A stretch of 64,000 nucleotides of DNA from Candidatus Woesearchaeota archaeon (GTDB taxonomy: Archaea; Nanobdellota; Nanobdellia; Woesearchaeales; JAGVYF01): NCBI GenBank assembly GCA_023264635.1, contig JAHFLT010000002.1, positions 19,139 through 83,138 of the forward strand, read 5' to 3'. The notes under the pieces were generated by a model, which was not told the DNA's origin, made no database searches, and was given only the letters and a program-made list of their open reading frames with translations. Positions 6,001 through 30,860 of this stretch are shown piece after piece. The position numbers and the translations under genes were made by a program. Each line of letters starts with the position of its first letter. Positions within the stretch are counted from its first letter, which is position 1.

Positions 6001-9000
6001 GCATTCCTAAATGGGCCTATCATTAAAGATTCATTTGAGACACACGAAAAAAGAGTTACATGGAGAGAAACACTTCCTCAGGATGTCAGAGCATATTATG
6101 AGACCAATAGTCTTCGGTATAATCTCATAGTAAAACTTACTTTTTCCGGGTGGAGTATTATCCGATTCTATTTGGGTGATGCCTACATTCAGAATAATGA
6201 AGAAGTAAAGACAGCTGTAGAAGAGATAGAAAAATTATACCTTACTATAGATAAATATGACAAATTATCCTTAGAGGATAAAGTTCTTCATGGTAAAGAA
6301 ATAAAAAGAGCTGCGCATAATGTTCTGGGTGCATTAGCAGCCGGGAAAAAGGCGCCGAAAGGAGGAGCAGGAGAGGTCTCACCACTACAAAAAGGAGCGG
6401 AAAAAGCAAAGCCACTTGCTGCATTGACACTTGATATTGGTGGGCAGAGTTTCCCATTACCGAAGGTAAAAGTAGATGAGAACATAGATGCAGAAGGATT
6501 ACTGCGTTTAATAGCAAATACAGCAGACTGGCCACAAGCAGAAAAAAAAATAAAAGATATTCTTGCTGAAAATAATCTGGAAGAAGGTGTTGTTGTGGAT
6601 GGGGATGGTGATCTGGTTCTGTATGTGAAAGATAGTGAGGGAGTAATAAGAAAAGTTGGGGTGAAAGCATTTGAACAAGCAGTTTCTGAACAAGTAGAAC
6701 AACCAGTCTCATGTGGCCTTGGCTCAGGATTCTGCGGGGGGATGAATACGAAAGTACTTCCCTCAATAGGATCAGAGACTGTCCTCAGAGGACAGACCAT
6801 AGACATCAAAAATCCCACAATAGAACTAGCAGGTAAAATAGTGGAAATCAGACTAAGTAAATCTATAATAACACTTCATGAAAAACGAGGGAGATTTTTC
6901 CTGACCTACGAAGGAAGAGACATCCCATTGGATAAACCTGTAACAAAAATAGGAAGAGATTCTGGAAATGATATTGTTATTGAATATCCCTCTGTCTCTC
7001 GAAGGCATCTCGAGATAACATATGACAAGCAAAAAGGCATTTCCATCAGAGACCTCAATTCGCTAAATGGCTTACTTATCAGTGTCGGGAAAGAACTATC
7101 GCCCACGGAGAACGTTGCATCAAAGAATCTTGAAGTAATGAAGAAGAATACCCGAGGTGGAATGCTTGATTTGGTAAACAAAGAGAGTATGGGAGGGAAT
7201 GCTGGTTTTTATCAGGGTTACCCTGCGGTTGCTGCAAATTTTTATTTTAACCCAACAACAGGAGAGATTGTTTATTTCAGAAATATCCAGGATGTGCCTC
7301 CGGATATTCGTGCCTGGCATGCAAAAGGCACGTTTTTGGCTGCTGTAGACATACGAAGCGGGAAGTATAGTATTTTCAAATTTTGGTCAGACACAATTAT
7401 TTCTGGTAAGACTATGCAAGTCATGGAGGAATCAATACAACGCTTCAACAAAGAAGGTGGATTTGAAATACCAAAAGTTACTTCTACGACTCCAAAAGGA
7501 GAGCTCCAGATGTCTCCCATTGCAACAGTAGCTGCGGCAGCTATTGTGTTGATTAATCCCGTTGTAGGCGTGGGAATAATGGTGGGGTATGCATTGTATA
7601 GAGTAGGAACAATAGTGTTTGATACAATTGATGACTGGCTTCACCCAATACGCCCAGAACAGCAAGCACTTATAGACCAACTCAAAGATCCTAACCAGAA
7701 AGAAGAAGCCGCAAACATCCTTCATGGCATGGGAGCAAGAGCAGTTCCTTTTTTGCTCTACTCATTAAAAAAAATGGATAGTGAAACAAGTTATTCAGTA
7801 AGAAACATCATAGTAAATATGGGTGATGAAGCAATTCCCGCATTGCTCAATGCATTGGAGAATAATGATAATGATATCAGAAAGAATGCTGCTAGTATCA
7901 TCCGGAGTATAGAACCAACGGACAAGAAATTGATTCCTGCATTGATTCCTGCACTCTCAGACAATGACTTTAATGTTGGATATGACACCGCAATAACCTT
8001 AGCTAAAATAGGAGCAGATGCTGTTCCTGCCCTGCTGAAAGTGATAAAGAAAGGGGGTCAGAATAGCAAAAGAAATGCCGTATATGCACTAGGTTTTATG
8101 GATTCTGTTCCGCAAGAAGCTGTGCCTATCCTCATAAAAATCCTGCAGAACCAGGACATTTACTACAGGAGTTTTGCTGCAACAGCGCTGGGCAAAAGCA
8201 GAGATCCTCATGCAATTCACGTCTTACGGCAGGCATTGCATGATACAGAAAAAAAGGTGAGGGCGGAAGCTGCAAAAGCATTAGGGAAACTGAATGACAG
8301 AGAAGTAATACCTGAATTAACGAAACTTTTAAAAGATGAATTTATAGAAGTAAGGATTGCTGCTATTGAAGCTATGAGAATAATCGGCATCACGGAAGAT
8401 GATACTGTAACAATCAATAGCCTCATTGAAATAGTACAAACAACAGAGGACTCTGACATAAAACGTGCAGCGATACGAGTTTTAGGGGCAAGCAGTTCTG
8501 AGAGTGCTGTATCTATACTGGTAGCAATTGCAAGAGGTCAAAACCAGCCACAAACAATGAAAATCATAGCACTTGAGGCACTTGGTTCTCTAGGAGCTGT
8601 TGCAAAAACAGCTATTCCTCATCTTGTGGAGATTATAAGAACAGATCCATGGAATAATGGTCATTATGCAGCAAAGGCATTAGGAAACATGGGCAGTGAA
8701 GCGCTTCCTGTGGTGCTTGAGTTGTTAAGAGTTGGGGGAAACATACCCTATACTATTTTTGAAGACTCAGCTGTAAAAATACTGGTGAATGAGGGAATTG
8801 CTGCAATACTACACCAATTGAAAGGCCCAAGATCATATAACAGAAAAGTTGCTATCATGGCTCTGGGAAAGCTTAGCCCGGAAATAGCAAATACTCCTGA
8901 AATAAAAGCAGAATTAGTTAATGCACTTACAGATCATCTATCCTCTGTCCGTGAGAAAGCTGCTGATGCACTTGAACAAATGGGAGAAGCTGCTTTGCCA

Positions 9001-12000
9001 GAATTAATACAACTGCTACGGGGGGAGGATGACAGATTACTTACTCCCGCAATAAAACTCTTGACACGACTTGGAGCAAAAGCAGTGCCTTCGTTGACCC
9101 TCCTTCTTAGCGATGAAAATGCAATTGCCAGAAGAATGGCTGCAAAAATCTTAATAGGATTAGAGGATGACGCAGCTCCAGCAGTAGATGCACTGATAAA
9201 AGCACTGAATGATGAAGATGAAAATGTTCAGGCATTTGCTGCAAGTGCATTGAGTAAGATAAAAAAAGAGAGAAAAAGAATTATCACTGCCATGCTTGCA
9301 CAACTCACAGTAAGTACCTCACCAAGACAAGAAGTTACTCTCATTGAGGCATTAAGCGATATGAAAGCTGAAGAAGCAACTCCCTATCTGATTTCAGCAT
9401 TAGTGAGTGAAACCACAAGACCTGCTGCAACTGAGGCGTTGGGCATGATGGGCAAAAGTGCTGTTTTGCCGCTTATAGACCTGATAGAAAAGACAAATGA
9501 TCTGGACATAAAAACCAGTGCAATTATCGCGCTAGCATCAATTGGTCTTCTTGCAGAAGAAGCCATTCCGACATTAGTCAAGACACTGAAAGACCCACAA
9601 CTGAATATTGTCTCCCTAAATGCATTAATTGCTCTGAAAGATGCTGCACTGCCATCTCTTAAAAAAATTATCGAAGACAGAACAGAAGAACCAACACTAC
9701 GCATCTATGCAATAGAGGGGATGATAAAAATAGGGAAAAATTATAAGGATGTGGGAGAACTACTGTGGGGTATCCTTCTTGACCCTACGGAAAATAGCAA
9801 TGCGAGACATGCTGTTGGTGCTAGGATAACTGCAATAAGTGATGGAGAATCTATTAGCAATAAAATGCAGATAGATCGCAAACTGGCTGAATATATTTCA
9901 CGCCAAACAGATGCGCTAATGGACCTCATCCTGCACCCTGTGAAGAAAGCTGCTCTCAATGCTATTGCAACACAACTTGGAAAAGAGCGTACTGCGCATC
10001 CCAGCGAGAGAAAGATTGGTGAAGATGAGAAACTGACATTATTTGAGTATCTTTTCTCATTGAGCGACGACCAGGTGATGAATGCAAAAGAACTATTTGA
10101 CCAATACTTCAAAAATGACCCAACCCAATATACTATTGACCTTAATTCTCTTACTGAATTGATAAGACATATTGGATTAGATGGTTTAGAGCGATTGATA
10201 GCAATACTAAATGACCCATACCACAGTGTTGAGGATATTCTTGTGCTTGCTCAAGAAAGTCTTGGAGCATTGCCTGAAGCCGAGAGGGAATACACAAAAA
10301 GAAAATTGAGATGGATCATTGAAAACCATCGCATGCTTGAAGAAGAATTACAGGAGATTAAGGAACTCACTGTGGGGATGAGCTCAGAGGATGCTATGGC
10401 ATTATTAGAAGCTATAGATAAAGCAAATACGCCAGATGCGCTTCTTTCATTTACTAGACCAATAGGGCAGATATTCAAAGTCAAGCTGAGCAGCATGCCA
10501 CCAAATGAGGTAACGCCTTTCTTGATAAAAATAATAAATGCGCTTGACAGCATGAAGATTGCAGGAAAAACCAGATTGAATGATGCACAGAAACAGGAGG
10601 TGCTGGCTAAAGTCAGAGAAACAATGCAATCATTGCCAGAACAGGAGCAAAGAAGAGTATTATTCGGCATTCTAACCAAACTAAGCAGGAATAAAGAAGA
10701 TATTCTCACATTCCTGCAGCTATTTGAAGGACAGACGCCATTACAACGATTGGTAAGCGAATTTAGAGATATCCTTAATGATGCCGACATCCAGAATATT
10801 ATTACAACACCATTGCTTACTACTGAGCAAAAGATAGCACTCCTGACGCAGCTAAGCAAAGACCCGATAGACCTAATTCTTAAGAAACTACCACCTGAAG
10901 CAGCAACACTGCAAGAAGATATCAGGAAAATCAGTCAGAAAAGTGCTCCCACAATGGGAACAAAGATTCCCCATGTCTTTTTTGAAACCGTTATGAAGGT
11001 GAGTCAATTTGACTCTTCTGTCATTACGTCATTTCAGCAAGTGATAACTGCTGAGCCTGTTAGAAGGACTGGATTGCTGAAAAACCTGTTGTATGAAAAA
11101 ATGGTTGAGCTGTCCCGAACTGGATATGACAATACGCAACAGATTTTCTCGGGGATACTGAACGCAGTGAAAATCCAGTTTCATGATTTTCGTGATATCT
11201 CCAAAAATGGCAGGGAAGTTGCTGAGACGCTCAAACAACGAATTGAACAGATGATGACAATAAAAGAGGTAAAAGCAAATGCCTTGGGCAATGTGTTTGT
11301 TGATTTTGAGGGGAACCCCTTGCACGAAGAAAACAGAAAACTCAGAGAATTAGCAGAAGTAATTGAAAAAGAGCTGCTTGAAAAGAATATATTCAACAAA
11401 GAAGCATACGAACAGATGCAGAAAATACTCAGCACAATAAAGATTAACGACCTGTTAGCTGCTTTTGGGAATAATGTAAAAATAGAGAATAGGGAAAACG
11501 TCATGAGGAAACTCACAGAATACAGAAATACTCCTGCAGGCAGGCAAAAAGACTATAATGGGTATGACTTGTACAAGTTACTTCAGAAATATCTGAAACA
11601 GAAACATGAAAACATATTCAATACAGTGCTCTACGACGCGCTGATACATGAGATAGAAGGCACATTCTCTCCATGGAGATACCAAAGCCCTGATTACATT
11701 GCAACGCTTGATGCCTTTATTGAAAATGAAATCAAAAAAAATGGGGTTGAGGACGAATTTAAAATCATTGATGGGAAAAATCCCGTAGAAAAATTGGCAA
11801 ACAGTGAGTACAGGGATATCAAACAAAATATGGGGAGAATACGCACATGGGAACAGCCAGCCAGCAAGGCCATAACAATAGGAAAGGAGGAATACACGCT
11901 CTCATTTGCAGATGATTTATTTACACTTATCAACGTAGGAAACAGCCCGTTCTTTTTCAGCTGCCAGAACTGCATAAGCGGTAGCTACAACGAGGGACTG

Positions 12001-12495
12001 CTTGGATACATTGCAAACGGCGCCAATAAGGCAATTGTAGTGAAAAACAAAGATGGTACCATTATCGGCAGACGCATAGTGAGATTACGACTTGTTGACA
12101 ACAGACCAATACTCTTCCTTGAAAAAATGTATGGCAATAAAGGAGAAAAAGAAATGCTTGATTTTGCCAGAGAAATAGCGGCGACAATGGGGCTTCCTCT
12201 TGCAACGCTTGGCCAAGAAGAGCACAAAATGGTGTTATTTGACGGGAGAAGCCCCTACGATTATAGTGATTCATATGGGAGGGTATTAGAAGGGGGTGAT
12301 GTTGGACTTTATAACCATGAAAAACATAACCGCCAAGCTAATCAGGAAGTGACAAAGCCAATAACAATTAGTGTCGGTATGACCATAGAAGAAATCCCTA
12401 TATCTGCGCTTGCAGAGCACATTGCCGCCATACCATTAAATGAAATTATCCCTGCTGCTCAAGCTGCTGCCCAAGAACAGGCAGTAGCTGGATAG
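49..12495 (+). CDS. Giant multidomain protein (>=4148 aa) with two PBS-lyase/HEAT repeat arrays, an FHA domain and a hydrophobic membrane segment. The reading frame is open back to nt 1, so the N-terminus may be truncated by the window
   Basis: Single uninterrupted ORF. HEAT-like repeats (e.g. 'AIFALGNIGSPEA', 'ALKTIGRIGSPEGIPVLIEALGDKD', 'AVYALGFMDSVPQEAVPILIKIL', 'AAKALGNMGSEALP') at aa ~280-480 and ~2560-3230. FHA signature 'KIGRDSGNDIVIEYPSVSRRHLEITYDKQKGISIRDLNSLNGLLI' at aa ~2300. Hydrophobic stretch 'IATVAAAAIVLINPVVGVGIMVGYALYRVG' at aa ~2490. Confidence 0.8.
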   Translation: MGGNDVVDPHKFQRIDGMSLDSPFRHLFIEVATGFDTPQTLKYYNDLALYPETAPLDSTIVQFSMTGRAYLFVHGKGLVDITKKYQELTFQRPANANQQIQRLLEEAKKCGGKITGAATCPVAVFIKLEQAMRTNNINDKYYYLRQARELLQKVQDGIPATEAAQALTPEDIDQVIASIRETKSASPLAQLIQKIKATPIKPEVMALLIEIDEALSSWRYDTVARALEQLNTYGPDALPALPIIHKVMQQTPPYPDLVESIVNMQSNALQVLGKIGSISYVSDLHNALENAHPRIRLNAAIALGIMGERSSKREQEKIIAALGLLITEEKYEGIRSAAIFALGNIGSPEARANLEELVHLKEYEKNDRDIANILISLGEMGHDAIESWETIIPFTSINQPKYVRVTALKTIGRIGSPEGIPVLIEALGDKDTEIHDAAEFGLHVARKEAVPALIKVIDNKNRNVRQSASKILSEGGIDTIAAVPVLMKKGYSAEAISAEAILLHAKKEIEQGISLTEEQKETAAQAIVTALAYKLSPTALPLGLFILKATGATATDAAMMALSEGRIGPEIAKVIVARTATDEQLQLMLLSENAPVRTVALSVFIQQKGAEAIPTLMDALHDASPEVLIASLTFFLVGRIHLLSSEQKRLLGERVTELVEHPRPAVTAKAITILAELGNQDYLPIIVKFIEDNEYSFRAIIKQVSKEWRSSLGIERYTLEQSQAVSTALSSLAAFGHAAIPSIIERIKVPAVQEGIFNRAYKLFDAELDATINNDLTGFRNWIENDPQNAALLLFDNYPRPEEITSPEQRQEVVTAIKQDLRAARVAQTKYRGVAERYVNGRVVERKMLESPEFVRAKELKLKRLAQMLRNVGEQEAAELQEAERLLQGEAPIFREAERQMGTVTSPEMEQLIAQDPTVTRETALVVLDKLQSELQLPTVLPEEVLPAMQKVKPMLKEELDIDMAITRKLAIAAGDYMGALVSVFTLNPVFVTAGLFAGTAVGGEALKLAMTTSTRQRVEEILSALEEILNLPPDKVANRVVPFEHLYTVARQIHNARADLSDEYIVTRLKELYNARIFAWQIEQLEEFWVLPDIEQAIAIAKSNFPIEYAKAFWNKGAGIHDIAELSERYRTTEGQVTVDLMYHFLPQIERFRMDDYNTLEKRVMDAEMDVLAEAVALPLEEDTTGRIRELLRGREAEVVPENEVKLIEQKRCESPCKERNAFMAALAQAAGLALSDAEREKAQSEGKIVVSLPNGVFVTQEAHNFLQKVVDVKFFESLLEYSNPKHAQYDEVKKVLHQAEQDGKVRTALERAVVQMAKAGIALHENNAFAARDAIRNAVREMNGAGEGITQQLNAALDAKDYRTLMQLLATPESATRQAVLGAMGKRGLAGLAPPFEPALYLKYAYAYAAEEGVRFLMDYVMPFAQQNELQPGWALLYLARAYRMNPEHVKDILGKKPHLATLEIFADEELRIRSATAVTTGQLKKNLLVGDRIHGTSLGALESVRSDGLELSKSFEGEAVVAATEVDNPIKNNLNLLDPLSYAIGRSRERGDWPILLRISRNNPEQPKREGPGYNEIWYHNNIHPEYIEYFNPFTGEWKSITKLTPLEGDSLKKQFSDAWKKQQMQVQGQDKLLVTTNQIYMDTPQYERAYERATAVKTPSLVGEPTRAEHDFTEKKVLALGERLKWPQEMQKKYRSKITILNNEDEALYMYNAYKKIYPTQIEGVQFQRDDYFKPFSVPEKYDVVTLNFPDYVGIPNFEQLVTNIKNALKEEGKFYLVSEGEPGVVSGHITQGNVALLRALKEKGFILVLEGNAEKNLRGYTEEASSLHFPLDLAYVWVFRKSINVPKQADCKGGSLVCTVTFSQPIEDILVTADRITEKIEEATDAILPAPITSLSNDKRSISMTYKTEQQFDYDALKKEIESGLPSGERVTLATSSEEILRKDPHIISFETGRYTLPEIDYSQFSDQARAKYLVNRLDAFLNGPIIKDSFETHEKRVTWRETLPQDVRAYYETNSLRYNLIVKLTFSGWSIIRFYLGDAYIQNNEEVKTAVEEIEKLYLTIDKYDKLSLEDKVLHGKEIKRAAHNVLGALAAGKKAPKGGAGEVSPLQKGAEKAKPLAALTLDIGGQSFPLPKVKVDENIDAEGLLRLIANTADWPQAEKKIKDILAENNLEEGVVVDGDGDLVLYVKDSEGVIRKVGVKAFEQAVSEQVEQPVSCGLGSGFCGGMNTKVLPSIGSETVLRGQTIDIKNPTIELAGKIVEIRLSKSIITLHEKRGRFFLTYEGRDIPLDKPVTKIGRDSGNDIVIEYPSVSRRHLEITYDKQKGISIRDLNSLNGLLISVGKELSPTENVASKNLEVMKKNTRGGMLDLVNKESMGGNAGFYQGYPAVAANFYFNPTTGEIVYFRNIQDVPPDIRAWHAKGTFLAAVDIRSGKYSIFKFWSDTIISGKTMQVMEESIQRFNKEGGFEIPKVTSTTPKGELQMSPIATVAAAAIVLINPVVGVGIMVGYALYRVGTIVFDTIDDWLHPIRPEQQALIDQLKDPNQKEEAANILHGMGARAVPFLLYSLKKMDSETSYSVRNIIVNMGDEAIPALLNALENNDNDIRKNAASIIRSIEPTDKKLIPALIPALSDNDFNVGYDTAITLAKIGADAVPALLKVIKKGGQNSKRNAVYALGFMDSVPQEAVPILIKILQNQDIYYRSFAATALGKSRDPHAIHVLRQALHDTEKKVRAEAAKALGKLNDREVIPELTKLLKDEFIEVRIAAIEAMRIIGITEDDTVTINSLIEIVQTTEDSDIKRAAIRVLGASSSESAVSILVAIARGQNQPQTMKIIALEALGSLGAVAKTAIPHLVEIIRTDPWNNGHYAAKALGNMGSEALPVVLELLRVGGNIPYTIFEDSAVKILVNEGIAAILHQLKGPRSYNRKVAIMALGKLSPEIANTPEIKAELVNALTDHLSSVREKAADALEQMGEAALPELIQLLRGEDDRLLTPAIKLLTRLGAKAVPSLTLLLSDENAIARRMAAKILIGLEDDAAPAVDALIKALNDEDENVQAFAASALSKIKKERKRIITAMLAQLTVSTSPRQEVTLIEALSDMKAEEATPYLISALVSETTRPAATEALGMMGKSAVLPLIDLIEKTNDLDIKTSAIIALASIGLLAEEAIPTLVKTLKDPQLNIVSLNALIALKDAALPSLKKIIEDRTEEPTLRIYAIEGMIKIGKNYKDVGELLWGILLDPTENSNARHAVGARITAISDGESISNKMQIDRKLAEYISRQTDALMDLILHPVKKAALNAIATQLGKERTAHPSERKIGEDEKLTLFEYLFSLSDDQVMNAKELFDQYFKNDPTQYTIDLNSLTELIRHIGLDGLERLIAILNDPYHSVEDILVLAQESLGALPEAEREYTKRKLRWIIENHRMLEEELQEIKELTVGMSSEDAMALLEAIDKANTPDALLSFTRPIGQIFKVKLSSMPPNEVTPFLIKIINALDSMKIAGKTRLNDAQKQEVLAKVRETMQSLPEQEQRRVLFGILTKLSRNKEDILTFLQLFEGQTPLQRLVSEFRDILNDADIQNIITTPLLTTEQKIALLTQLSKDPIDLILKKLPPEAATLQEDIRKISQKSAPTMGTKIPHVFFETVMKVSQFDSSVITSFQQVITAEPVRRTGLLKNLLYEKMVELSRTGYDNTQQIFSGILNAVKIQFHDFRDISKNGREVAETLKQRIEQMMTIKEVKANALGNVFVDFEGNPLHEENRKLRELAEVIEKELLEKNIFNKEAYEQMQKILSTIKINDLLAAFGNNVKIENRENVMRKLTEYRNTPAGRQKDYNGYDLYKLLQKYLKQKHENIFNTVLYDALIHEIEGTFSPWRYQSPDYIATLDAFIENEIKKNGVEDEFKIIDGKNPVEKLANSEYRDIKQNMGRIRTWEQPASKAITIGKEEYTLSFADDLFTLINVGNSPFFFSCQNCISGSYNEGLLGYIANGANKAIVVKNKDGTIIGRRIVRLRLVDNRPILFLEKMYGNKGEKEMLDFAREIAATMGLPLATLGQEEHKMVLFDGRSPYDYSDSYGRVLEGGDVGLYNHEKHNRQANQEVTKPITISVGMTIEEIPISALAEHIAAIPLNEIIPAAQAAAQEQAVAG

Positions 12496-24049: not shown

Positions 24050-25252
24050 ATGGCTGAGAAAAACAGCTTAGACAATATTGTCATTGCAACTGTTTCCAGC
24101 ACGCATGCTGACTTTTCTGAAAGAATTGCTGAATATGCTGGACAAAATGGTTCTATTCTTAACATAATGGACCCGCATAAATTCTCAGGAAAAGAATACT
24201 GCCCAAGATTTAAGGTCCCGGTAATTGAAAAAAATGTATATCTCATAGCAACACAAGGTCCTTTCCAGAATCCTCAGGAGATGATGGCACGCATTGCATT
24301 TGCCGCGAGCGCTGCGAAAACAAATGGAGCTAGGCGTGTTACGGCAGTGATGACTGATCTTCCGTTCTCACGACAAGACAGGGGACCAAAAGAAGATAGT
24401 CGGATGATTGGGCAGCCATTGAGCGCTGAAGTTCAGGCTGCGATATTTGCAGCCACTGGTGTTGACCGTGTCCTTACAATGCACTTGCACTCAGAAAAAT
24501 TGTACAGCATATACGCAAATGTATACAGGCAGGAAGGGAAAAATGTGCTCTATGGCATTGTGCCAGATTTCATCACTGCGCACTACTTTAGATCCTGTGC
24601 GAGCTTGAACATCAAAGAAAATGGCTCAGATATTGTTTTTATTGCTGTTGATAAGGGAAGTATTCCTTATATTAGGCGGATAAAAAAACTCATTGGCCTT
24701 CCATATGCAGGAATACTCTGTTTTTCGAAAAAGAGGAAAGAGCCAAATAAGGAAACAGGTCTTCTTATTGATATAGATTCACATGAGAATGTGACTTTAT
24801 TAGAAAATAAAATAGGTATCATAGCAGATGACATCGTTGACACAGGAGGCACGCTTGGTGTGATTGGTGATGCGCTCAATACAAACAAGTTTGGTCTGGG
24901 AAAAATGAAAGGACTCTACATTTATTTTACGCACCCGGTTCTTGCAGCAGATTCATATAAACAAAAACAGTCAGACTTGATTAAGATAGGAGCACGAGAG
25001 ATTATCTGTACAAATACGCGACCATACATTGCAGAGATTGAGAAACAGGATGAGGAATTCAAGAAAAGAGCAACTATTCTGTTGATAGAAAAGCTTTTTG
25101 CCCATGCCATTATTAACTGTTGTGAGAGAAACAAACATCCTGAAGAAGTCTACACATTCGCGACAGGAAATGATGGTGATGAACAGGCAAGCAAACTATA
25201 TGAAATCAAACGTTCCGAGTTATTTATAGAAAAAGATATAGAAAAAAAATAA
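24050..25252 (+). CDS. prs: Ribose-phosphate pyrophosphokinase (PRPP synthetase) homologue with ~80-aa C-terminal extension
   Basis: 'ARRVTAVMTDLPFSRQDRG' (cf. RITAVIPYFGYARQDRK). 'VLTMHLHSEKLYSIY' (cf. DLHA.QIQGFF). PRPP-binding 'IIADDIVDTGGTL'. Confidence 0.65.
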   Translation: MAEKNSLDNIVIATVSSTHADFSERIAEYAGQNGSILNIMDPHKFSGKEYCPRFKVPVIEKNVYLIATQGPFQNPQEMMARIAFAASAAKTNGARRVTAVMTDLPFSRQDRGPKEDSRMIGQPLSAEVQAAIFAATGVDRVLTMHLHSEKLYSIYANVYRQEGKNVLYGIVPDFITAHYFRSCASLNIKENGSDIVFIAVDKGSIPYIRRIKKLIGLPYAGILCFSKKRKEPNKETGLLIDIDSHENVTLLENKIGIIADDIVDTGGTLGVIGDALNTNKFGLGKMKGLYIYFTHPVLAADSYKQKQSDLIKIGAREIICTNTRPYIAEIEKQDEEFKKRATILLIEKLFAHAIINCCERNKHPEEVYTFATGNDGDEQASKLYEIKRSELFIEKDIEKK

Positions 25253-25266
25253 CGGCGAAATAATGA

Positions 25267-26448
25267 TTAGAGTCTTAATTCTTTCCGTAAGACTTCTGCT
25301 TTGTCCCTATTTTCCCATGTGAGATTGGGCTGTTCCCTGCCAAAGTGCCCATAGTTAGTTGTTTCTCTGTAAATAGGTCGCAGTAAATCAAGCATCTCGA
25401 TAATCCCCCGTGGCCGCAAATCAAAATGTTTGATGATAAGCTTCTCGATCTTCCGTTCATCAACCTTGTTGGTTCCAAAAGTATCAACATAAACAGAAAC
25501 GGGTTCAGCAATTCCAATGGCATATGCAATCTGCACTTCGCATACGTCTGCCAGTCCGGCAGCAACAACATTCTTTGCAACGTAGCGTGCTGCATATGCT
25601 CCGCTCCTGTCTACTTTGCTGGGATCTTTTCCAGAAAATGCGCCACCGCCATGCCGTGCCCAGCCGCCGTAGCTGTCAACGATAATCTTTCTCCCCGTAA
25701 CCCCGGAATCCCCTAGTGGCCCCCCGATTTCAAAACGGCCAGTCGGATTTATGTGAATCTTGGTTTTGTCATCAACATATTCTTTCAACGTAGGGAGGAT
25801 GACATATTCGTAGAGCACAGCACGCAACTCTTCCAGCGAGATCTCATCACTGTGATGTGCAGAAAGTACGACAGCATCAACCCTTTTAGGTGTACCATCT
25901 TCAAATTCAACAGTAACTTGACTTTTACCATCCGGTCGTAAATAAGATCCCCCATAATACTTATTGTCGCTATAATTAGAAAGCGCACATGTTAACGCAT
26001 GTGCTAATTTAATGGGGAGTGGCATGAGTTCTGGGGTGTGATTTATTGCATAGCCGAACATCATCCCCTGATCTCCAGCTCCTTGCTCCTTGTCATCACG
26101 AGCAGATACGCCCATATCAATATCAGGGCTCTGCGGAGTAATAAACGTATTAACATTTACTGTTTTGTAATTAAATCCTTTTTCATCAGCATCATAACCA
26201 ATACTATCGAGTGCGTGCCGCACCACGTGTTCCAGATTTATTTCTGCGCGAGTTGTCAACTCTCCTGCGAGATTGACATAATGATGATACCCAAGTTTAT
26301 CTCGTACACACTTGACTTCCGTTTCCACAGCAACACGGGAATGCTTGTCCTGTTCTAAACATGCATCCAGTATGCTATCAGAAATGTAATCACAAACTTT
26401 GTCCGGATGTCCCCCTGTCACACTCTCAGACGTAAATAACTTTTTCAT
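25267..26448 (-). CDS. metK: S-adenosylmethionine synthetase, bacterial/eukaryotic (MetK) type
   Basis: '[13 protein letters not shown]', '[12 protein letters not shown]', '[27 protein letters not shown]', 'VQIAYAIG'. Confidence 0.9.
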
Positions 26449-26555
26449 ATGAATCCCCCCGTCTAGTAATACATATGCTGCGTGCAGCTGACTTTTAAAC
26501 TTTTGTATACTTCATTAAACAAATTGATAAGAAAAAAAAAGGGGGATAAAGCGCA

Positions 26556-27512
26556 TTAAACAAGTTTTTTAAGTATCTCTTTAATAGGTGCTGCTTTGTT
26601 CATACTGTAAAAGTGCAATGCAGGGACACCATAATACAGGAGTTCCTTGCATTGCGCAACAGCCCATTCTATGCCTATTTGTTTCACTGCTGCATCATCC
26701 TGCGATAATGTCATCTCAACCAATTCTTGAGGGAGCTCAATATGGAACTTCCGTGGAAGAACTGTCAATTGTTTTTTTGAATCCAATGGTTTAATCCCCG
26801 GAACAATTGGAATTTTTATCCCCACCTTCCTTGCCTTCTCAACAAATGCAAAATAGTTCTTGGTGTCAAAAAACATTTGGGTGACAATGTAGTCAGCACC
26901 TTTATCCACTTTGTTTTTCAGCATCTGCATATCGTAGTCTCTGTTCGGTGCTTCATAGTGCTTATCAGGATAACCTGCTACCCCTATACAAAATTTTGTT
27001 GGTGTTGGGTCTTCTATGGGAAAAAGATATTTCCCGTTGTTGAGATTAACTATTTGCTCTACTAACCCAGAAGCATGGTGATGTCCTTCTGGATGGGGAA
27101 CAAACCCTTTTTCTAAGTCTTGCGGATCTCCACGCAGTGCGAGTACCGTGCGAATATTTGCGACATTTAAGTCTATCAGTGCTTCTTCGCACTCCTTTAT
27201 CGAAAAGCCACCACAAATAAGGTGAGGCGTTATCTCAACATCATCTTTTCCATGATAGTATCCCTTCAAATAGGAACAAAGAGGCACTGTTCCTGGATTC
27301 CTCCTGAGGGGATAACCTATCTGCATTCCGTTTTCATTTTTAGATACGATTTTCTCTTGGTGATACGTCACTTCTATGCCAATGGGATGATACTCAAGAA
27401 GCTGGTCGAGCGTCGCACAGACGTCATCTACGGTTTTTCCCAAGGTGGGAGGAAGTATCTCAAGCGACCACTTCAGTTCTCCTGGCTTTGTAGCGAATTT
27501 ATCAGTATACAT
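26556..27512 (-). CDS. metF: 5,10-methylenetetrahydrofolate reductase (MetF). The computed ORF extends to 27620 from a TTG; the internal ATG near 27512 ('MYTDKF') fits the family N-terminus better
   Basis: 'LKWSLEILPPTLGKT', 'EITPHLICGGFSIKECEEALIDLNVANIRTVLALRGDP', 'IGVAGYPDKHYEA', 'GADYIVTQMFFD', 'GVPALHFYSMNKAAPIKEI'. Confidence 0.75.
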   Translation of the reverse strand: MYTDKFATKPGELKWSLEILPPTLGKTVDDVCATLDQLLEYHPIGIEVTYHQEKIVSKNENGMQIGYPLRRNPGTVPLCSYLKGYYHGKDDVEITPHLICGGFSIKECEEALIDLNVANIRTVLALRGDPQDLEKGFVPHPEGHHHASGLVEQIVNLNNGKYLFPIEDPTPTKFCIGVAGYPDKHYEAPNRDYDMQMLKNKVDKGADYIVTQMFFDTKNYFAFVEKARKVGIKIPIVPGIKPLDSKKQLTVLPRKFHIELPQELVEMTLSQDDAAVKQIGIEWAVAQCKELLYYGVPALHFYSMNKAAPIKEILKKLV

Positions 27513-27888
27513 GCAGTGCCTGAGAGTAACATGACCATTAAAAAGATTGCGGAAAAACAGTTCGTATAATAATCGTTTCTGGTGACTGCTACTGGCAGTG
27601 ATTAGTAATGCGTTCTGCAAGAGTTTTGATTGTTGAGGGATAGAATTCCATAATTAATGAATATTCCTTCCTTTGCTTTTTCCTCGATAGCTGAAGCAAA
27701 GCCATAGTTGATAACGAAAACTCGCCTACTCGGAGCTCTCCACGCACAAAGAAATGTGCGGCATTTCTTGTGCAAGAAATTCCTTTGAAACCTCTTTGCA
27801 CTAAAGTCAGAGGTATTAAACCCGGCAATTTTCAATAAGCTAATTTTATTTTCTCGTCTGGTTTTTCCAGCCTAAAATAATGCTCCAC

Positions 27889-28659
27889 TTAATTTTCACC
27901 TTTTGGCGGTTCACCTTTCGTCCCTTTCACAACAATCTTCCGCAATTCTGCAAGATGCCTGTCAATAGCATCAAGATTATCTGACACCGCATGCATCATA
28001 TAATTTGTCCCTTCCGCAACGTAAGGTGGAAGTTTCTTAAAATCTGTGTTTTTGTAAAATGTATCGTGAGATACTTCAGCCCATGCATGCTGCAGTGTTG
28101 TGCGCAACTGTAATTCTCCTTCCAGAGAAAGTCCTATCTCTGGTCTAAGGTAAACAAATGCGAAATCACATGATCTATAGCCCGATTCCGGCACTTTATC
28201 AATCCAATCCCCGTTCTCATCACGCGGGTATCTGCTTTGTAGCGAGAATGGTGGCAACTGAATCTCTGCATCTAAGATACTCCGCAACTCCTTGCACTCA
28301 TCTGCAAACCTGCAGATAATACGATAGCCGACAGTATCATCCAACGGAAGATTTTCCCACGTAATGCTGCCTTCGCATAACTTTCTGTAAATGCTTTCTA
28401 GGGATTTCACACGGCTCACGACTTTAAGGGAATATGCTTTGTCAAGAAGATGGAGTTCTGCACTAATCGGTGACTTTATCACCGCCCTGTTCACTAGTCG
28501 CTGTAAATCCCTCTGGATATCCGTATCGTATTCACGGAGTTTCTGGATTATTTCCTCGTAGCACTCGCTAAGCTGGCCATGTGCTGTATAGTCCTTACGC
28601 AATGTATCATATGAGGGAAATGATTGCAAGATCGCATTAAGGTTTGTTGGTAATTTCAT
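27889..28659 (-). CDS. RelA/SpoT-family nucleotidyltransferase (small alarmone synthetase, SAS-like)
   Basis: Synthetase motifs 'SRVKSLESIYRKL', 'DDTVGYRIICRF', 'GYRSCDFAFV', 'GELQLRTTLQHAWAEVSHDTFYK'. Confidence 0.75.
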   Translation of the reverse strand: MKLPTNLNAILQSFPSYDTLRKDYTAHGQLSECYEEIIQKLREYDTDIQRDLQRLVNRAVIKSPISAELHLLDKAYSLKVVSRVKSLESIYRKLCEGSITWENLPLDDTVGYRIICRFADECKELRSILDAEIQLPPFSLQSRYPRDENGDWIDKVPESGYRSCDFAFVYLRPEIGLSLEGELQLRTTLQHAWAEVSHDTFYKNTDFKKLPPYVAEGTNYMMHAVSDNLDAIDRHLAELRKIVVKGTKGEPPKGEN

Positions 28660-29492
28660 TTTTCCTCTCCCCTATTTCTCCTCTCTATGAAATAGGTAAT
28701 ACATTCTTTTTGTTCGCTCTCTGTGAATTCCCTCCTAAGTGTTGTGGAAGTGAACGTAAGATGCTTGGTTATGGATGCAGCATATGAGGATTGAAGAAAA
28801 ATAGGCTGTGAAAGAAGGCAGTACTCAATCTCGAAGAAGTACGCATAAATCCAGAACCTGCTTTCGTCATGCCGCATCTCATTAAAACGAGTAATGCATG
28901 CTTCAAGATTAGCCAGTAGGTCAGCAGTCTTAGTTATCAGTGCTAGTGGATGTGAACATAAACAAGAGTAGTAATCACGCGTCTTTGTTATTCCAGAGTA
29001 TTGGTTCCTGTCCAAAAGCATGAGGGATAACAATAACTTCTCTGGAGTTTGAAGGAACTTGTACTGCTTTAATAGGGAGAGAATCTCTTCTTTCGTAGCA
29101 CGTTTGTCTTCAAGCAAGTCATGCCACAAAGCAGTGATTATTGCTACAGGATCTTCTGAAAATGTCTGGACATACCGCGCTGTCTTCGCACAATGAAAAG
29201 TATAAGGAAGAACAGTGTCATTTTCCCATTTGTAGAATTGACCACCGTGCCGCGTAAGTGCAAAAAGAAATGCATCAACAAGGATACGCTGAATTTCTGT
29301 GGAATAGCCAGCTATATTAATAATGAATTTTTCGTATTCTTCTACTGCAGTAACATACGCCACCAGCTTAGTTGGTTTTTGTGCGAGAAACAAAGATTGC
29401 CTAAGCAGTGCTTTTCCCTTCGTATCAGCAACCAACGATAACGCGTCTTCAAAAATCGCCGTGTGAACCATACAATAGGAATCCATTAGCAT
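28656..29492 (-). CDS. HD-domain hydrolase of the RelA/SpoT/Mesh1 type (small alarmone hydrolase, SAH-like). Overlaps the downstream SAS gene by 4 nt
   Basis: 'TFHCAKTARYV' (HxxxVA-like), 'AIITALWHDLLEDKRATKEEI' (cf. AALLHDVVEDT..T.EEI), 'ITKTADLLANL' (cf. KLADRLHNM). Confidence 0.55.
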   Translation of the reverse strand: MLMDSYCMVHTAIFEDALSLVADTKGKALLRQSLFLAQKPTKLVAYVTAVEEYEKFIINIAGYSTEIQRILVDAFLFALTRHGGQFYKWENDTVLPYTFHCAKTARYVQTFSEDPVAIITALWHDLLEDKRATKEEILSLLKQYKFLQTPEKLLLSLMLLDRNQYSGITKTRDYYSCLCSHPLALITKTADLLANLEACITRFNEMRHDESRFWIYAYFFEIEYCLLSQPIFLQSSYAASITKHLTFTSTTLRREFTESEQKECITYFIERRNRGEEK

Positions 29493-29602
29493 ATACTTAT
29501 TTTCTTTTGACGTTTTAATTCGTTAAAGAATTATTCCGATAAGAATATTAAAAAATATTATTATGAATATGTTTATATACAAGAGTAAACAATGAGTGAC
29601 GT

Positions 29603-30163
29603 ATGGACATAGAACTTAATGAGATAAAGTACATCAGAAAAAAGTTGGGACTGACACAAAAACAGCTGGCAGACCGAGCTGATGTAAGCCAAAGCTTGAT
29701 TGCTAAGGTAGAGGCTGGAGCGATTGAACCAACATATTCCAAGGCAAAAGGAATCCTGCATGCGTTAGACAAACTGAGCATGACAATGGAACTGACAGCA
29801 CAAGAGTTAATGAAAAAAAAACTTGTAACGGCACAGGAAAATGATGATATTGCAACTATCGCAAAAATGATGAAAAAACATGAAATCTCTCAAGTCCCCG
29901 TAGTTCGTCAAAAGATACCTATTGGTCTGGTAACCGAATCAATCATCTTAGAGAAGATGATGGAAACCAAAGACCCACAAAAGATTGCACTGCTCAAAGC
30001 AAAAGATATCAAGAACGAATGTCCACCAGTTATTTCTCCGGATACAAAACAAAGCACAATAATAGGATTATTAAAATACTTCCAGGTGGTGCTTGTCGCA
30101 GAGCAGGGAGAGATCATTGGGCTCATCACGAAAGCAGATTTGCTTGAATTGATAAAGAAATAG
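29603..30163 (+). CDS. XRE-family HTH regulator fused to tandem CBS domains
   Basis: 'LGLTQKQLADRADVSQSLIAKVEAG' HTH; two CBS-like modules ('ISQVPVV...GLVTESIILEKM', 'VVLVAEQGEIIGLITKADLLELI'). Confidence 0.7.
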   Translation: MDIELNEIKYIRKKLGLTQKQLADRADVSQSLIAKVEAGAIEPTYSKAKGILHALDKLSMTMELTAQELMKKKLVTAQENDDIATIAKMMKKHEISQVPVVRQKIPIGLVTESIILEKMMETKDPQKIALLKAKDIKNECPPVISPDTKQSTIIGLLKYFQVVLVAEQGEIIGLITKADLLELIKK

Positions 30164-30183: not shown

Positions 30184-30651
30184 TTAGGGATATCTTTTCG
30201 CTGACACAAAACGTACCCCGCGGGAAACCTTGAAGTTGGAGTTGAAGTCGATAACATACCTGTTAATGTAGTTGCCGCGACTAACAGGCAACAAACTATT
30301 TTCTGATGGAATCAAAAGCCACGCCTTCTGCCTAACCTCTTCTGGTAGTATTGCATAATGACGAGACCAGAGCTTCTCTACCAAAGCAGGATTTATTTCG
30401 TTCACGTCTTTAATAGAAACCCATCTATTCATTGAACCAATAGAATACACTTCCTCTCCTGCGTGTTTCAGTTTTTCCCCTTGCGCAGTGTATTTGTTTC
30501 CATCCCACACGAGATTCTCAGGGTCAAAATAGCAATGCAGCAGATTTCCTTCCCGCAGCATTGCCATGCTTAGCCATTCGCCATAACTATTCACCCTATC
30601 GTCAGCAGTTGCTTTCTGTTCTGGTTGCAGTCTCCCTCCAGTCTTCTGCAA
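30184..30651 (-). CDS. Hypothetical protein; possibly the 3' part of a frameshifted gene together with ORF 30591-30860
   Basis: 155-aa ORF from a TTG. The upstream 89-aa ORF in another frame overlaps it by 61 nt. The two translations read like one ~230-aa protein. Confidence 0.35.
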   Translation of the reverse strand: MQKTGGRLQPEQKATADDRVNSYGEWLSMAMLREGNLLHCYFDPENLVWDGNKYTAQGEKLKHAGEEVYSIGSMNRWVSIKDVNEINPALVEKLWSRHYAILPEEVRQKAWLLIPSENSLLPVSRGNYINRYVIDFNSNFKVSRGVRFVSAKRYP

Positions 30652-30860
30652 ATAAGGTCAAACACTTCTGCTGGAAGCGGATGGCGCTCGTAGCCGCGCG
30701 CTCGCAATGCTTGTAGGCTGGCGTCGAATGTGTAGAGTTTTTTCTCTTTCCTTTCGTACACCGCTCTCGGCTCGAAAACAATATCTGAAAGTGCTGGCTT
30801 TACAGTAATCTCCTTTTTATTACCGGGTTTGCCGAGACCAAAGTAGCTGTCGAGGGACAT
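30591..30860 (-). CDS. Hypothetical protein; possible 5' part of a frameshifted gene
   Basis: 89-aa ORF starting with ATG and lying in the gap after FtsZ. Confidence 0.3.
   Translation of the reverse strand: MSLDSYFGLGKPGNKKEITVKPALSDIVFEPRAVYERKEKKLYTFDASLQALRARGYERHPLPAEVFDLICRRLEGDCNQNRKQLLTIG

Follow-up and report, generated by a model that had tools for sequence, protein, structure and literature searches.

The ATP-donor and catalytic residues of the single-domain alarmone synthetases are known from Staphylococcus aureus RelP, where they are R78, K80, S84, K88, D107, R112, Y151, E174 and H190 (PMC5794853), and alarmone synthetases usually carry a large positive patch beside the acceptor Tyr (PMC11782079). 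Small alarmone hydrolases (SAHs) are universal neutralisers of the toxSAS toxins (PMC7229694, PMC11782079); they can also undo tRNA pyrophosphorylation, and no sequence signature reliably tells alarmone synthetases and tRNA-targeting toxSAS apart (Kurata et al. preprint). In Treponema denticola a small alarmone synthetase (SAS) and an SAH, probably acquired horizontally, have been shown by experiment to synthesise as well as degrade (pp)pGpp and (p)ppApp (PMC10434055, PMC3153485). Surveys have recorded sporadic archaeal SAS/SAH genes in Methanosarcina, Natronomonas and Methanococcoides (PMC3153485), and archaeal RSH genes have so far been regarded as occasional acquisitions from bacteria whose use is not known. 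Alarmones of the (p)ppGpp type have yet to be detected in any archaeon (PMC8646023). The original prediction stated that archaea generally lack (p)ppGpp metabolism; this holds for the cultured models (PMC8646023), but among MAGs RelA/SpoT homologues were found in 41.7% of the Woesearchaeota and 69% of the Diapherotrites, with a bacterial origin proposed for the Woesearchaeota annotations (PMC8407392). RelA/SpoT genes in DPANN archaea are already known at the level of annotation.

The locus described here lies in a 64-kb stretch of DNA (the window), in which Rfam and tRNA scans gave no matches. The host is archaeal, because S4e, L32e, L19e, an L24e-type protein, aEF-1beta and Trm1 are encoded on the same contig. 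The two predicted minus-strand genes are present, and their description as a tightly coupled SAH/SAS pair in an archaeon is borne out. The SAS gene (27889–28659, 256 aa) encodes a protein with the RelA/SpoT pyrophosphokinase fold and the SAH gene (28656–29492) one of 278 aa, or of 271 aa from an M8 start at 29471; public gene calls begin at M8 (271 aa) or give a 276-aa protein. The junction, ...GGAGAGGAAAAATGAAA, contains an ATGA stop/start overlap of 4 nt (28656–28659, minus strand) with the purine-rich stretch GGAGAGGAAAA just before it. SAH is directly upstream of SAS in all 13 distinct related archaeal loci that include upstream sequence, with junctions of −23 to +1 nt. This is the arrangement of toxSAS systems, conserved operons of two or three genes in which the antitoxin gene sits beside the SAS gene and often overlaps it.

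Based on sequence comparisons and on its predicted fold, the downstream gene encodes a RelA/SpoT synthetase that is nearest to RelQ and RelP. Residues 82–205 match PF04607 (RelA_SpoT) with 55 bits against a cut-off of 27 (E = 1.2e-14), as had been anticipated, and the domain is found in all 20 clusters of the family. Invariant among 19–20 family members are the donor motif R83-x-K85-x3-S89-x3-K93; D108-x2-G111-x-R113, with the Mg-binding Asp and the second adenine-stacking Arg; G160-Y161-R162-S163, which keeps the acceptor-stacking Tyr of G-Y-[RKQ]-S; and the catalytic E182-x-Q184-x-R186-T187 together with H198. The donor and catalytic residues correspond to those of RelP (PMC5794853). The motifs on which the original prediction relied are real and invariant, but the set is not complete as claimed, since the canonical His of G-Y-R-S-x-H is an Asp in GYRSCDFAF.

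In a search of the PDB with the SAS profile the best matches were RelQ and RelP (E = 2.8e-13 to 1e-8). The AlphaFold2 (AF2) model (pLDDT 87, pTM 0.82) gave the same answer in Foldseek, with RelQ (5ded/5dec) and RelP on top (1.7e-9, TM 0.64–0.74); the first 39 matches are RelQ/RelP-type chains, two of them unnamed GTP pyrophosphokinase structures, and the long RSHs come next. The model and the Foldseek matches place the family in the nucleotide pyrophosphokinase fold. SAS scores just 38.7 bits on the RelQ/YjbM equivalog NF053588, which has a cut-off of 320, and therefore represents a separate subfamily. In an exhaustive HMM search the family scored 429 and 297 bits, followed by a gap to 108 bits for the next protein. 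The family is acidic, with a mean pI of 5.7 (range 5.1–6.5). Its nearest outgroups are bacterial, in line with the horizontal acquisition that the original prediction had allowed for, and consist of stand-alone or tandem-SYNTH proteins that lack HD domains.

The upstream protein has an RSH-type HD core at about residues 65–200, conserved helical N- and C-terminal extensions that are specific to the family, and an invariant R212-F-W-I-Y. H100, H124, D125, E128, D129, K188, D191 and N195 are invariant in alignments of 8 and 11 sequences and align with the Rel equivalents, namely the metal ligands H...HD...D, the catalytic ED dyad and K-x-x-D-x3-N. The HD-hydrolase signature that had been read in this gene is thus present as a full H..HD..ED..D..N set. 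The suggested check against HD_4 (PF13328) came out below threshold (15.4 bits against 27.2; 19.4 bits for the orthologue at locus L010), whereas homology to the RSH hydrolases was recovered with the family profile in the PDB. The best match was a long-RSH HD domain, that of S. aureus Rel (7oiw, 6.7e-11), followed by Leptospira SAH (2.2e-9), Bacillus subtilis Rel (1.8e-7), Thermus thermophilus Rel (1.1e-6), SpoT (1.8e-6), RelH/SAH (2e-5) and Mesh1 (9e-5), and the protein has the RSH-type HD fold. In a search of 5.8 billion proteins the first matches beyond the family were HD_4 proteins. Precomputed Pfam assignments are blank for every family member and the public annotation is 'hypothetical protein'. 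SAH genes can therefore sit below Pfam thresholds, and calls of 'SAS without SAH' in genome surveys may be wrong.

A divergent gene at 29603–30163 (plus strand, 186 aa), present as predicted, encodes a transcription regulator with an N-terminal XRE-type HTH (HTH_3, 49.8 bits, residues 8–56) and a C-terminal pair of CBS domains forming a Bateman module (67.5 bits in two stretches), the latter closest to the CBS pairs of MJ1225 and MJ0100. It adjoins the pair, in divergent orientation, in six of the eight informative loci (the window, L001, L004, L005, L006/L007 and L016) and is absent from beside the pair at L010 and L002. The 110-bp control region between the operon and this gene (29493–29602) is AT-rich and was aligned for five loci. 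It contains a candidate operator, ATTCTTATCGGAAT (29533–29546, minus strand; consensus ATTCYTATNGGAAT, core ATTC-N6-GAAT), which, upstream of both genes, starts 54 nt from the SAH ATG and ends 57 nt from that of HTH-CBS; the 64-kb window has no other exact match. Of the 12 loci whose upstream sequence is long enough, 11 have the ATTC-N6-GAAT palindrome 18–74 nt upstream of SAH, a count that takes in L010 (no adjacent regulator; two mismatches). Each related locus has one copy at the same position, except L006/L007, which has two. At L002, which also has no adjacent regulator, merely a related palindrome, ATTCTTTAAAGAAT, was read by eye in the upstream sequence. Between the operator and the SAH start is a TATA-box-like A/T-rich element, GAATTAAAA (29513–29521, minus strand), which forms a conserved block of the alignment (AATAATTATTAAGA in other loci) and is the inferred archaeal promoter of the SAH-SAS operon. 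The link between pair and regulator that had been suspected from their proximity is upheld by conserved synteny and the conserved candidate operator, and is a positional one.

The phylogenies of the two proteins are congruent. Neighbour-joining trees of SAS and SAH contain the same two clades and pairwise identities in the two families are correlated (r = 0.91, 45 pairs), with SAH evolving faster (mean identity 43% versus 61% for SAS). Identity of SAS to the window protein is 65–75% where that of MetK is 72–78% and that of MTHFR 63–75%. The flanking genes are housekeeping genes that differ between clades (FtsZ, Trm1, aIF5B, MTHFR, MetK, PRPP synthetase, ArgRS, PCNA and GatCA), and those 3' of SAS vary from MTHFR, ArgRS and PCNA to a 47-aa ORF followed by an amidase, or a 686-aa protein. 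No third gene of the pZFD, Tis1-like, PanA or GepA antitoxin type is conserved beside the pair in the related loci, and no defence or mobile genes were seen in the neighbourhood. The view of the module as recent cargo was not sustained: in the window its GC content is that of the DNA around it, and the host loci and genomes span 32–49% GC. The MAG with 32% GC, which contains L010, carries a 'Methanosarcinales' label (label only).

Members of the SAS/SAH family were absent from IMG/VR viral contigs, phage records and plasmids. These searches returned just generic RelA_SpoT or SAH relatives of 24–33% identity, and an origin from mobile elements was therefore rejected. The SAS family comprises about 20 clusters in 5.8 billion proteins and was found by motif scan in 4 of 185,579 species genomes, so it is not a general archaeal system. 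The module is a stable chromosomal unit in a small group of DPANN (Woesearchaeota-like) archaea. The pair was probably acquired once from bacteria and later inherited vertically under strong purifying selection.

On balance we lean towards an alarmone make-and-break module of old bacterial origin, which is three-part, vertically inherited, transcriptionally controlled and chromosomally fixed in a Woesearchaeota-like (DPANN) clade. Because its donor and catalytic site is complete and its fold RelQ-like, SAS would move the beta,gamma-pyrophosphate of ATP onto the 3'-OH of a purine-nucleotide acceptor. SAH, a putative Mn-type RSH HD hydrolase judging by its fold and full H..HD..ED..D..N residue set, would take off the 3'-pyrophosphate made by SAS. 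As the hydrolase gene is first and the synthetase gene overlaps it, co-transcription and translational coupling would follow; the synthetase would never be made in a cell without the hydrolase, and it would be substrate supply or allostery that fixes the net alarmone level. The conserved position and domain content of the HTH-CBS protein suggest that it may bind ATTC-N6-GAAT just upstream of the TATA-like element of the operon, and tune transcription via an adenosine-type CBS ligand such as energy charge, SAM/MTA or the product of the module itself. The module looks like regulated "magic-spot" signalling rather than a toxin-antitoxin pair.

The original prediction had raised a toxSAS-antitoxin system, and the locus could be viewed as a toxSAS/SAH type IV toxin-antitoxin or abortive-infection module. 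SAS would then be a growth-arresting toxin that makes (pp)pApp or pyrophosphorylates tRNA CCA ends, the co-translated SAH would detoxify its product continuously, and the balance would be tipped by the HTH-CBS regulator or by a phage trigger. The overlapping bicistron with SAH upstream is the architecture of aTfaRel-faRel (PMC7229694, PMC11782079), SAH evolves faster than SAS (43% versus 61% mean identity), and both the ability of SAHs to reverse tRNA pyrophosphorylation and the want of a clear toxSAS sequence signature (Kurata et al. preprint) are consistent with such a role. SAS also matches the PADLOC candidate model PDC-S33 (2.2e-16), but at model positions 63–175 of 349 only and with a bit score like that of Pfam (58 versus 55); this is the generic RelA_SpoT core, and the system was rejected as a domain-only match. 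Among the solved toxSAS compared with the SAS profile (FaRel2, CapRel and Tas1/Apk1), FaRel2 reached E = 1e-3 and CapRel 1e-2, against 1e-13 for RelQ/RelP, and Tas1/Apk1 gave no match; no toxSAS structure is among the best 50 Foldseek matches of SAS. There is no conserved third gene of the AT2faRel/Tis1/pZFD-like kind, as the downstream genes differ in every clade. The housekeeping neighbourhood without defence or mobile genes, the vertical, congruent inheritance with a putative toxin conserved like MetK, and the absence of the family from viral, phage and plasmid data all differ from the patchy, mobile or prophage-borne distribution of toxSAS, and an acidic SAS (pI 5.1–6.5) is unfavourable for tRNA binding. 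A toxSAS function is accordingly disfavoured and we regard it as unlikely. It is much less probable still that gene fission split the N-terminal region of a bacterial bifunctional Rel into an HD and a SYNTH half, which would now pair non-covalently as a Rel-like heterodimer and regulate each other. The gene order does reproduce the domain order of Rel, HD then SYNTH, and the best SAH profile match is a long-RSH HD domain (S. aureus Rel 7oiw, 6.7e-11; B. subtilis Rel, 1.8e-7), but the SAS profile has no long-RSH match at E ≤ 1 compared with 1e-13 for RelQ/RelP, long RSHs are four orders of magnitude below RelQ in Foldseek, the nearest SAS outgroups, whether stand-alone or tandem-SYNTH, have no HD domain, and none of the loci has a fused orthologue. 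Mis-assembly of a bacterial fragment into an archaeal contig, or a pair of decaying pseudogenes, might be suspected from the bacterial type of the RSH genes and of the neighbouring three-domain MetK. The same gene order, however, recurs in more than 10 assemblies made independently from different samples, the contig also carries an archaeal ribosomal operon and FtsZ/Trm1/aEF-1beta, GC is uniform, and the two ORFs are uninterrupted and keep their invariant catalytic residues. Such an artefact has a negligible chance of being the explanation and is effectively refuted by the recurrence of the locus.

A further alternative concerns the identity of the molecule and is compatible with the signalling module that we prefer. 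The canonical His of G-Y-R-S-x-H probably contacts the acceptor phosphates. The residue at this position in SAS, four past the G-loop Tyr, is D165 in 20/20 members, while in the 153 nearest outgroups it is His in 134 and Asp in only 2. E180, two residues before the catalytic Glu, is likewise Glu in 20/20 members and Lys/Arg in 83/153 outgroups. An invariant R117 stands where Tyr was, and in the lengthened G-loop P145, R146, W152 and K155 are invariant. Given H165D, K180E and the expanded G-loop, the canonical GDP/GTP acceptor is not to be assumed; the SAS acceptor may differ from GDP/GTP, and the product from (p)ppGpp. In the papers on RSH enzymes that we consulted we found no explicit role for the His of G-Y-R-S-x-H and no determinants of A-versus-G specificity, so what we infer about H165D is our own functional reading. 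The pair may reversibly 3'-pyrophosphorylate something other than GDP/GTP, with candidates including adenosine nucleotides, a nucleoside monophosphate, a dinucleotide or cofactor, and an RNA 3' end, and with synthetase and hydrolase co-adapted to that substrate. In SAH the H-x-G-Q-x-R segment is replaced by H-x-G-Q-[FYW]-Y-x-W with a 4-residue insertion, which together with D165, E180, R117 and the longer G-loop of SAS points this way, and a smaller positive patch goes with non-nucleotide acceptors (PMC11782079). Against it, the acceptor-stacking Tyr161, R162 and S163 are still present and the invariant R117, R146, K155 and R172 could rebuild a phosphate-binding patch; we hold it to be a minority possibility, a little ahead of the toxin. 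On a par with it, and just as tentative, is the proposal of a genuinely archaeal alarmone circuit in the Woesearchaeota clade that signals not through (p)ppGpp but through another 3'-pyrophosphorylated adenosine-type nucleotide or cofactor. The messenger would be made by the remodelled, less basic SAS site (H165D, K180E, expanded G-loop with W152) and broken by a private SAH with a co-varying pocket, and the CBS pair would sense that molecule or SAM/energy charge, closing the feedback on ATTC-N6-GAAT and linking the signal with the neighbouring genes of the methionine/SAM cycle and of PRPP.

The locus brings together a synthetase, a previously unrecognised hydrolase, a predicted ligand-sensing, repressor-like regulator and a candidate operator as one unit of a DPANN lineage, in which selection acts on the synthetase as strongly as on the core metabolic genes nearby. 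The invariant replacements of His by Asp and of Lys/Arg by Glu are a natural experiment on acceptor specificity in RelA/SpoT enzymes, a property that workers in the field say sequence does not yet reveal. The locus is a compact system of four components that lends itself to reconstitution in vitro and in E. coli, and can answer whether archaea use magic-spot signalling, with which molecule, and how an archaeal transcription factor couples to it. Our literature search found no description of the SAH partner, operon, regulator/operator or acceptor-site changes in this family.

By sequence and modelled structure, the closest characterised relatives of SAS are the non-toxic housekeeping enzymes RelQ (SAS1/YjbM) and RelP (SAS2/YwaC) of the Firmicutes, which share with it the single-domain RelA_SpoT fold, a similar size and the same ATP-donor, Mg and catalytic residues at just ~20–24% identity. 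Unlike them, the archaeal SAS has Asp for His, Glu for Lys/Arg, a longer G-loop and an acidic pI, is always paired with SAH, is linked to an HTH-CBS regulator and has an archaeal host. The aTfaRel-faRel-aT2faRel system of Cellulomonas marina also has an SAH gene directly upstream of, and coupled to, the SAS gene (PMC7229694, PMC11782079), and in both cases the hydrolase is expected to undo the product of the synthetase. The archaeal module differs in having no second Tis1/pZFD-like antitoxin gene, in its vertical inheritance and housekeeping flanks, and in its separate dedicated transcription factor and candidate operator; its SAS has no detectable specific similarity to the solved toxSAS FaRel2, CapRel and Tas1/Apk1. 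The archaeal SAH has the same H..HD..ED..D..N residues as the stand-alone SAHs, which include Corynebacterium glutamicum RelH, Leptospira SAH, Pseudomonas aeruginosa SAH, T. denticola ActSpo2, metazoan MESH1 and the Bacteroides (p)ppApp hydrolase. It is, however, about 80–100 residues longer, with helical extensions, the RFWIY motif and an altered H-x-G-Q-x-R, and unlike them it falls below the HD_4 threshold and is annotated 'hypothetical protein'. Earlier reports from archaea, including DPANN, are presence/absence calls, and the present SAS family is far rarer than the homologues they record. T. denticola, which has no long RSH, also builds its alarmone system solely from a small synthetase and a small hydrolase, but its genes, TDE1711 and TDE1690, lie apart and its SAS carries a TPR domain, whereas the archaeal genes overlap and encode proteins without extra domains.

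The two overlapping minus-strand genes of the original prediction were borne out by the ORF listing. The upstream gene (28656-29492, minus strand) encodes a putative small alarmone hydrolase (SAH) of 278 aa and the downstream gene (27889-28659, minus strand) encodes a small alarmone synthetase (SAS) of 256 aa; the junction is an ATGA stop/start overlap, with a purine-rich tract just before it. Around the pair the GC content is 0.40, in line with 0.39-0.445 elsewhere in the window. The contig is archaeal: a cluster of ribosomal-protein genes, among them S4e, L32e, L19e and L24e-type, is found at 57-62 kb, and genes for aEF-1beta, Trm1 and FtsZ lie less than 5 kb from the pair. The neighbourhood is one of housekeeping genes; MTHFR, a three-domain MetK and a PRPP-synthetase-like gene occupy one flank, and an HTH_3-CBS gene, two ORFs without a family assignment, FtsZ, aEF-1beta, Trm1 and aIF5B the other. 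Rfam and tRNA scans of the 64-kb window detected no Rfam families and no tRNAs.

Three other features of the window were recorded. The two unassigned ORFs (30184-30860, minus strand; 155 and 89 aa, the longer one starting at TTG) overlap, have no family match and fill the approximately 750 bp from the HTH-CBS gene to FtsZ; this stretch, possibly inserted DNA or a gene disrupted by a frameshift, is missing from the related loci L006/L007, where HTH-CBS adjoins FtsZ. The MTHFR ORF (26556-27620, minus strand) is 354 aa from a TTG start, compared with 318 aa in the public call and 275-325 aa in orthologues, so that the true start is probably downstream and the SAS-MTHFR spacer longer. At 49-12495 (plus strand) there is a single ORF of 4148 aa; it contains numerous HEAT/Arm repeats and, at approximately residues 2290-2344, an FHA domain, and it resembles the giant proteins reported from DPANN genomes.

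The SAS scores 55 bits against PF04607 (cut-off 27), which places it in the RelA_SpoT family as predicted. Its best solved relatives are of the RelQ/RelP type (2e-8 with the single sequence, 2.8e-13 to 1e-8 with the family profile); the same profile barely detects the toxic SAS (toxSAS) proteins FaRel2 (1e-3) and CapRel (1e-2) and gives no match to Tas1/Apk1. The AF2 model (pLDDT 87) has RelQ and RelP as its best Foldseek matches (1.7e-9, target TM 0.64-0.74), and no toxSAS structure is among the best 50. Long RSHs rank four orders of magnitude behind RelQ/RelP in this search; an origin by gene fission from a long Rel is unlikely. The ATP-donor and catalytic-Mg residues of Staphylococcus aureus RelP are R78, K80, S84, K88, D107, R112, E174 and H190, and its G-loop Tyr is Tyr151 (PMC5794853); the counterparts of all of these are invariant across the 19-20 family members. 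The predicted motif set holds for the donor and catalytic residues, but the acceptor side departs from it, with Asp for His at the G-Y-R-S-x-H position in 20/20 members (His in 134 of the 153 nearest outgroup proteins). Two residues before the catalytic Glu, all 20 members have Glu, where 83/153 outgroups have Lys or Arg. In addition, R117 replaces the usual Tyr, and the G-loop is lengthened and contains the invariant residues P145, R146, W152 and K155. The family is acidic throughout (pI 5.1-6.5), compared with a median pI of 8.5 for the nearest short SAS outgroups.

The upstream protein is a hypothetical protein with no domain in public records. The prediction of an HD hydrolase fell short in the Pfam search, where the protein is under the HD_4 threshold (15.4 against 27.2 bits), but a profile built from eight orthologues matches the HD domains of solved RSH proteins, including S. 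aureus Rel (6.7e-11), the Leptospira SAH (2.2e-9), Bacillus subtilis Rel, Thermus thermophilus Rel, SpoT, RelH, Mesh1 and a (p)ppApp hydrolase. As the metal ligands and catalytic residues (H100, H124-D125, E128-D129, K188, D191 and N195) are invariant, the protein is apparently a cryptic, active SAH. It is approximately 80-100 residues longer than stand-alone SAHs, with extensions at both termini that are helical and well predicted in the model, and an RFWIY motif that does not vary. In place of the usual H-x-G-Q-x-R it has H-x-G-Q-[FYW]-Y-x-W, with a four-residue insertion.

Among 5.8 billion proteins the SAS family comprises approximately 20 clusters (46-75% identity), followed by a gap to E ~3e-4; in an exhaustive HMM search, only two of 1.84 billion representatives fell below 1e-30 (429 and 297 bits), the next scoring 108 bits. 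The closest outgroups are short bacterial-looking SAS proteins and proteins of approximately 430 aa that carry RelA_SpoT twice in tandem; one cluster of the latter is named from a Bacilli bacterium. Also among the outgroups is a protein of 1475 aa that combines a TIR domain with RelA_SpoT matched in two stretches; to our knowledge, neither architecture has a characterised example. The named family members are from MAGs designated Candidatus Woesearchaeota or unclassified 'archaeon', with one MAG labelled Methanosarcinales. In the latter (locus L010, CAYHXI010000004.1, 'uncultured Methanosarcinales archaeon', 32% GC) the SAH-SAS pair has no adjacent HTH-CBS gene, and either the label is unreliable or the module is present outside DPANN. 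An assembly artefact was ruled out, as the locus recurs in more than 10 assemblies.

The SAH family has 11 members, with ordinary HD_4 proteins coming next at 1e-8. SAH is directly upstream of SAS in all 13 distinct loci that have sequence upstream of SAS, with junctions of -23 to +1 nt. The pairwise identities of SAS and SAH correlate (r = 0.91, 45 pairs) and the neighbour-joining trees of both contain the same two clades. In the loci that share the MTHFR-MetK-Prs neighbourhood, SAS (65-75% identity) is conserved to the same degree as MetK (72-78%) and MTHFR (63-75%), with SAH at 46-55%. The GC content of the host loci is 32-49%. The flanking genes vary by clade (MTHFR/MetK, ArgRS, PCNA or GatCA), and no mobile-element or defence genes flank the module in the loci examined. 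Searches of IMG/VR, phage records and plasmids recovered no member of either family and only generic relatives (24-33% identity). Taken together, these findings indicate that the module was acquired once, long ago and probably from bacteria, and has since been passed on vertically under purifying selection.

The predicted divergent regulator is present (29603-30163, plus strand), and an HTH_3 plus double-CBS gene divergently adjoins SAH in six of the eight loci with enough upstream sequence (the window, L001, L004, L005, L006/L007 and L016); other genes stand at this position in L002 and L010. Alignment of the divergent intergenic regions revealed a conserved palindrome, ATTCYTATNGGAAT (core ATTC-N6-GAAT), followed by a conserved A/T-rich, TATA-like block. 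In the window the only exact match is at 29533-29546, and the related loci have one copy at the corresponding place, or two in L006/L007. In 11/12 loci with enough upstream sequence, including L010 (ATTCCTCTTCGAAT, two mismatches), the palindrome precedes the SAH start by 18-74 nt. In L002 the search gave only weak, differently placed matches (two mismatches, 157 and 89 nt upstream), and a related palindrome, ATTCTTTAAAGAAT, was read there by eye. We infer from this arrangement that the HTH-CBS protein may bind the palindrome and control both the operon and its own gene. Its CBS portion is similar to the CBS pairs of MJ1225 and MJ0100, which bind adenosine ligands (SAM and MTA in the case of MJ0100). 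Methionine/SAM-cycle genes (MTHFR, a bacterial/eukaryotic three-domain MetK, two Meth_synt_2 and AdoHcyase) recur beside the module (window 24050-27620; L003 1647-4980; L006 7700-11109; L008 1732-3944; L002 1742-4622; L005 9364-10671), as does a divergent PRPP-synthetase-like gene, beside which L003 (Woesearchaeota MAG JACQSS010000028) has an intein-containing gene of 868 aa (5012-7618, minus strand; Intein_splicing and LAGLIDADG_3). Given the CBS pair and these neighbours, a link of the module to SAM/MTA is conceivable; alternatively, the recurrence could be plain synteny among relatives.

The simplest reading that fits all of the evidence, and one we hold to be somewhat better than even, is that the genes form a regulated make-and-break module. 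In it, the SAS would use ATP to pyrophosphorylate a purine nucleotide at its 3'-OH and the SAH would hydrolyse the product, while hydrolase-first translational coupling would ensure that the synthetase is never made alone; in bacteria an SAS needs a hydrolase (PMC3153485). The HTH-CBS protein would couple transcription of the operon to an adenosine-type metabolite. Partly overlapping with this is a non-canonical chemistry, which we consider doubtful. Alarmone synthetases bear an extensive patch of positive charge beside the acceptor Tyr, which is smaller in enzymes with other acceptors (PMC11782079), and the charge reversals at the SAS acceptor site agree with this observation; the SAH pocket is altered as well.

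The suggestion that the pair is a toxSAS/SAH toxin-antitoxin module has one strong argument, its aTfaRel-faRel-like architecture, and the toxSAS class is not recognisable from sequence. Against it, the loci have no second antitoxin, the context is housekeeping and inheritance vertical, the supposed toxin is acidic, has MetK-like conservation and is closest to RelQ/RelP, and the family was not found in mobile DNA; we therefore judge it improbable.

The make-and-break module can be set against what is known of archaea. Archaeal RSH genes were catalogued as sporadic imports (PMC3153485), and a DPANN survey reported RelA/SpoT annotations, ascribed to bacteria, in 41.7% of Woesearchaeota (PMC8407392), so the presence of an archaeal RelA/SpoT protein alone is not new. 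The premise that (p)ppGpp metabolism is generally absent from archaea has to be qualified accordingly. Detection of an alarmone has not been reported for any archaeon (PMC8646023), and the literature searched contained no functional studies of archaeal SAS or SAH proteins. What appears to be new is the recognition of a hidden SAH, the strict conservation of the operon, its putative link to an HTH-CBS regulator and candidate operator, and acceptor-site changes that are invariant throughout a subfamily standing well apart from all others.
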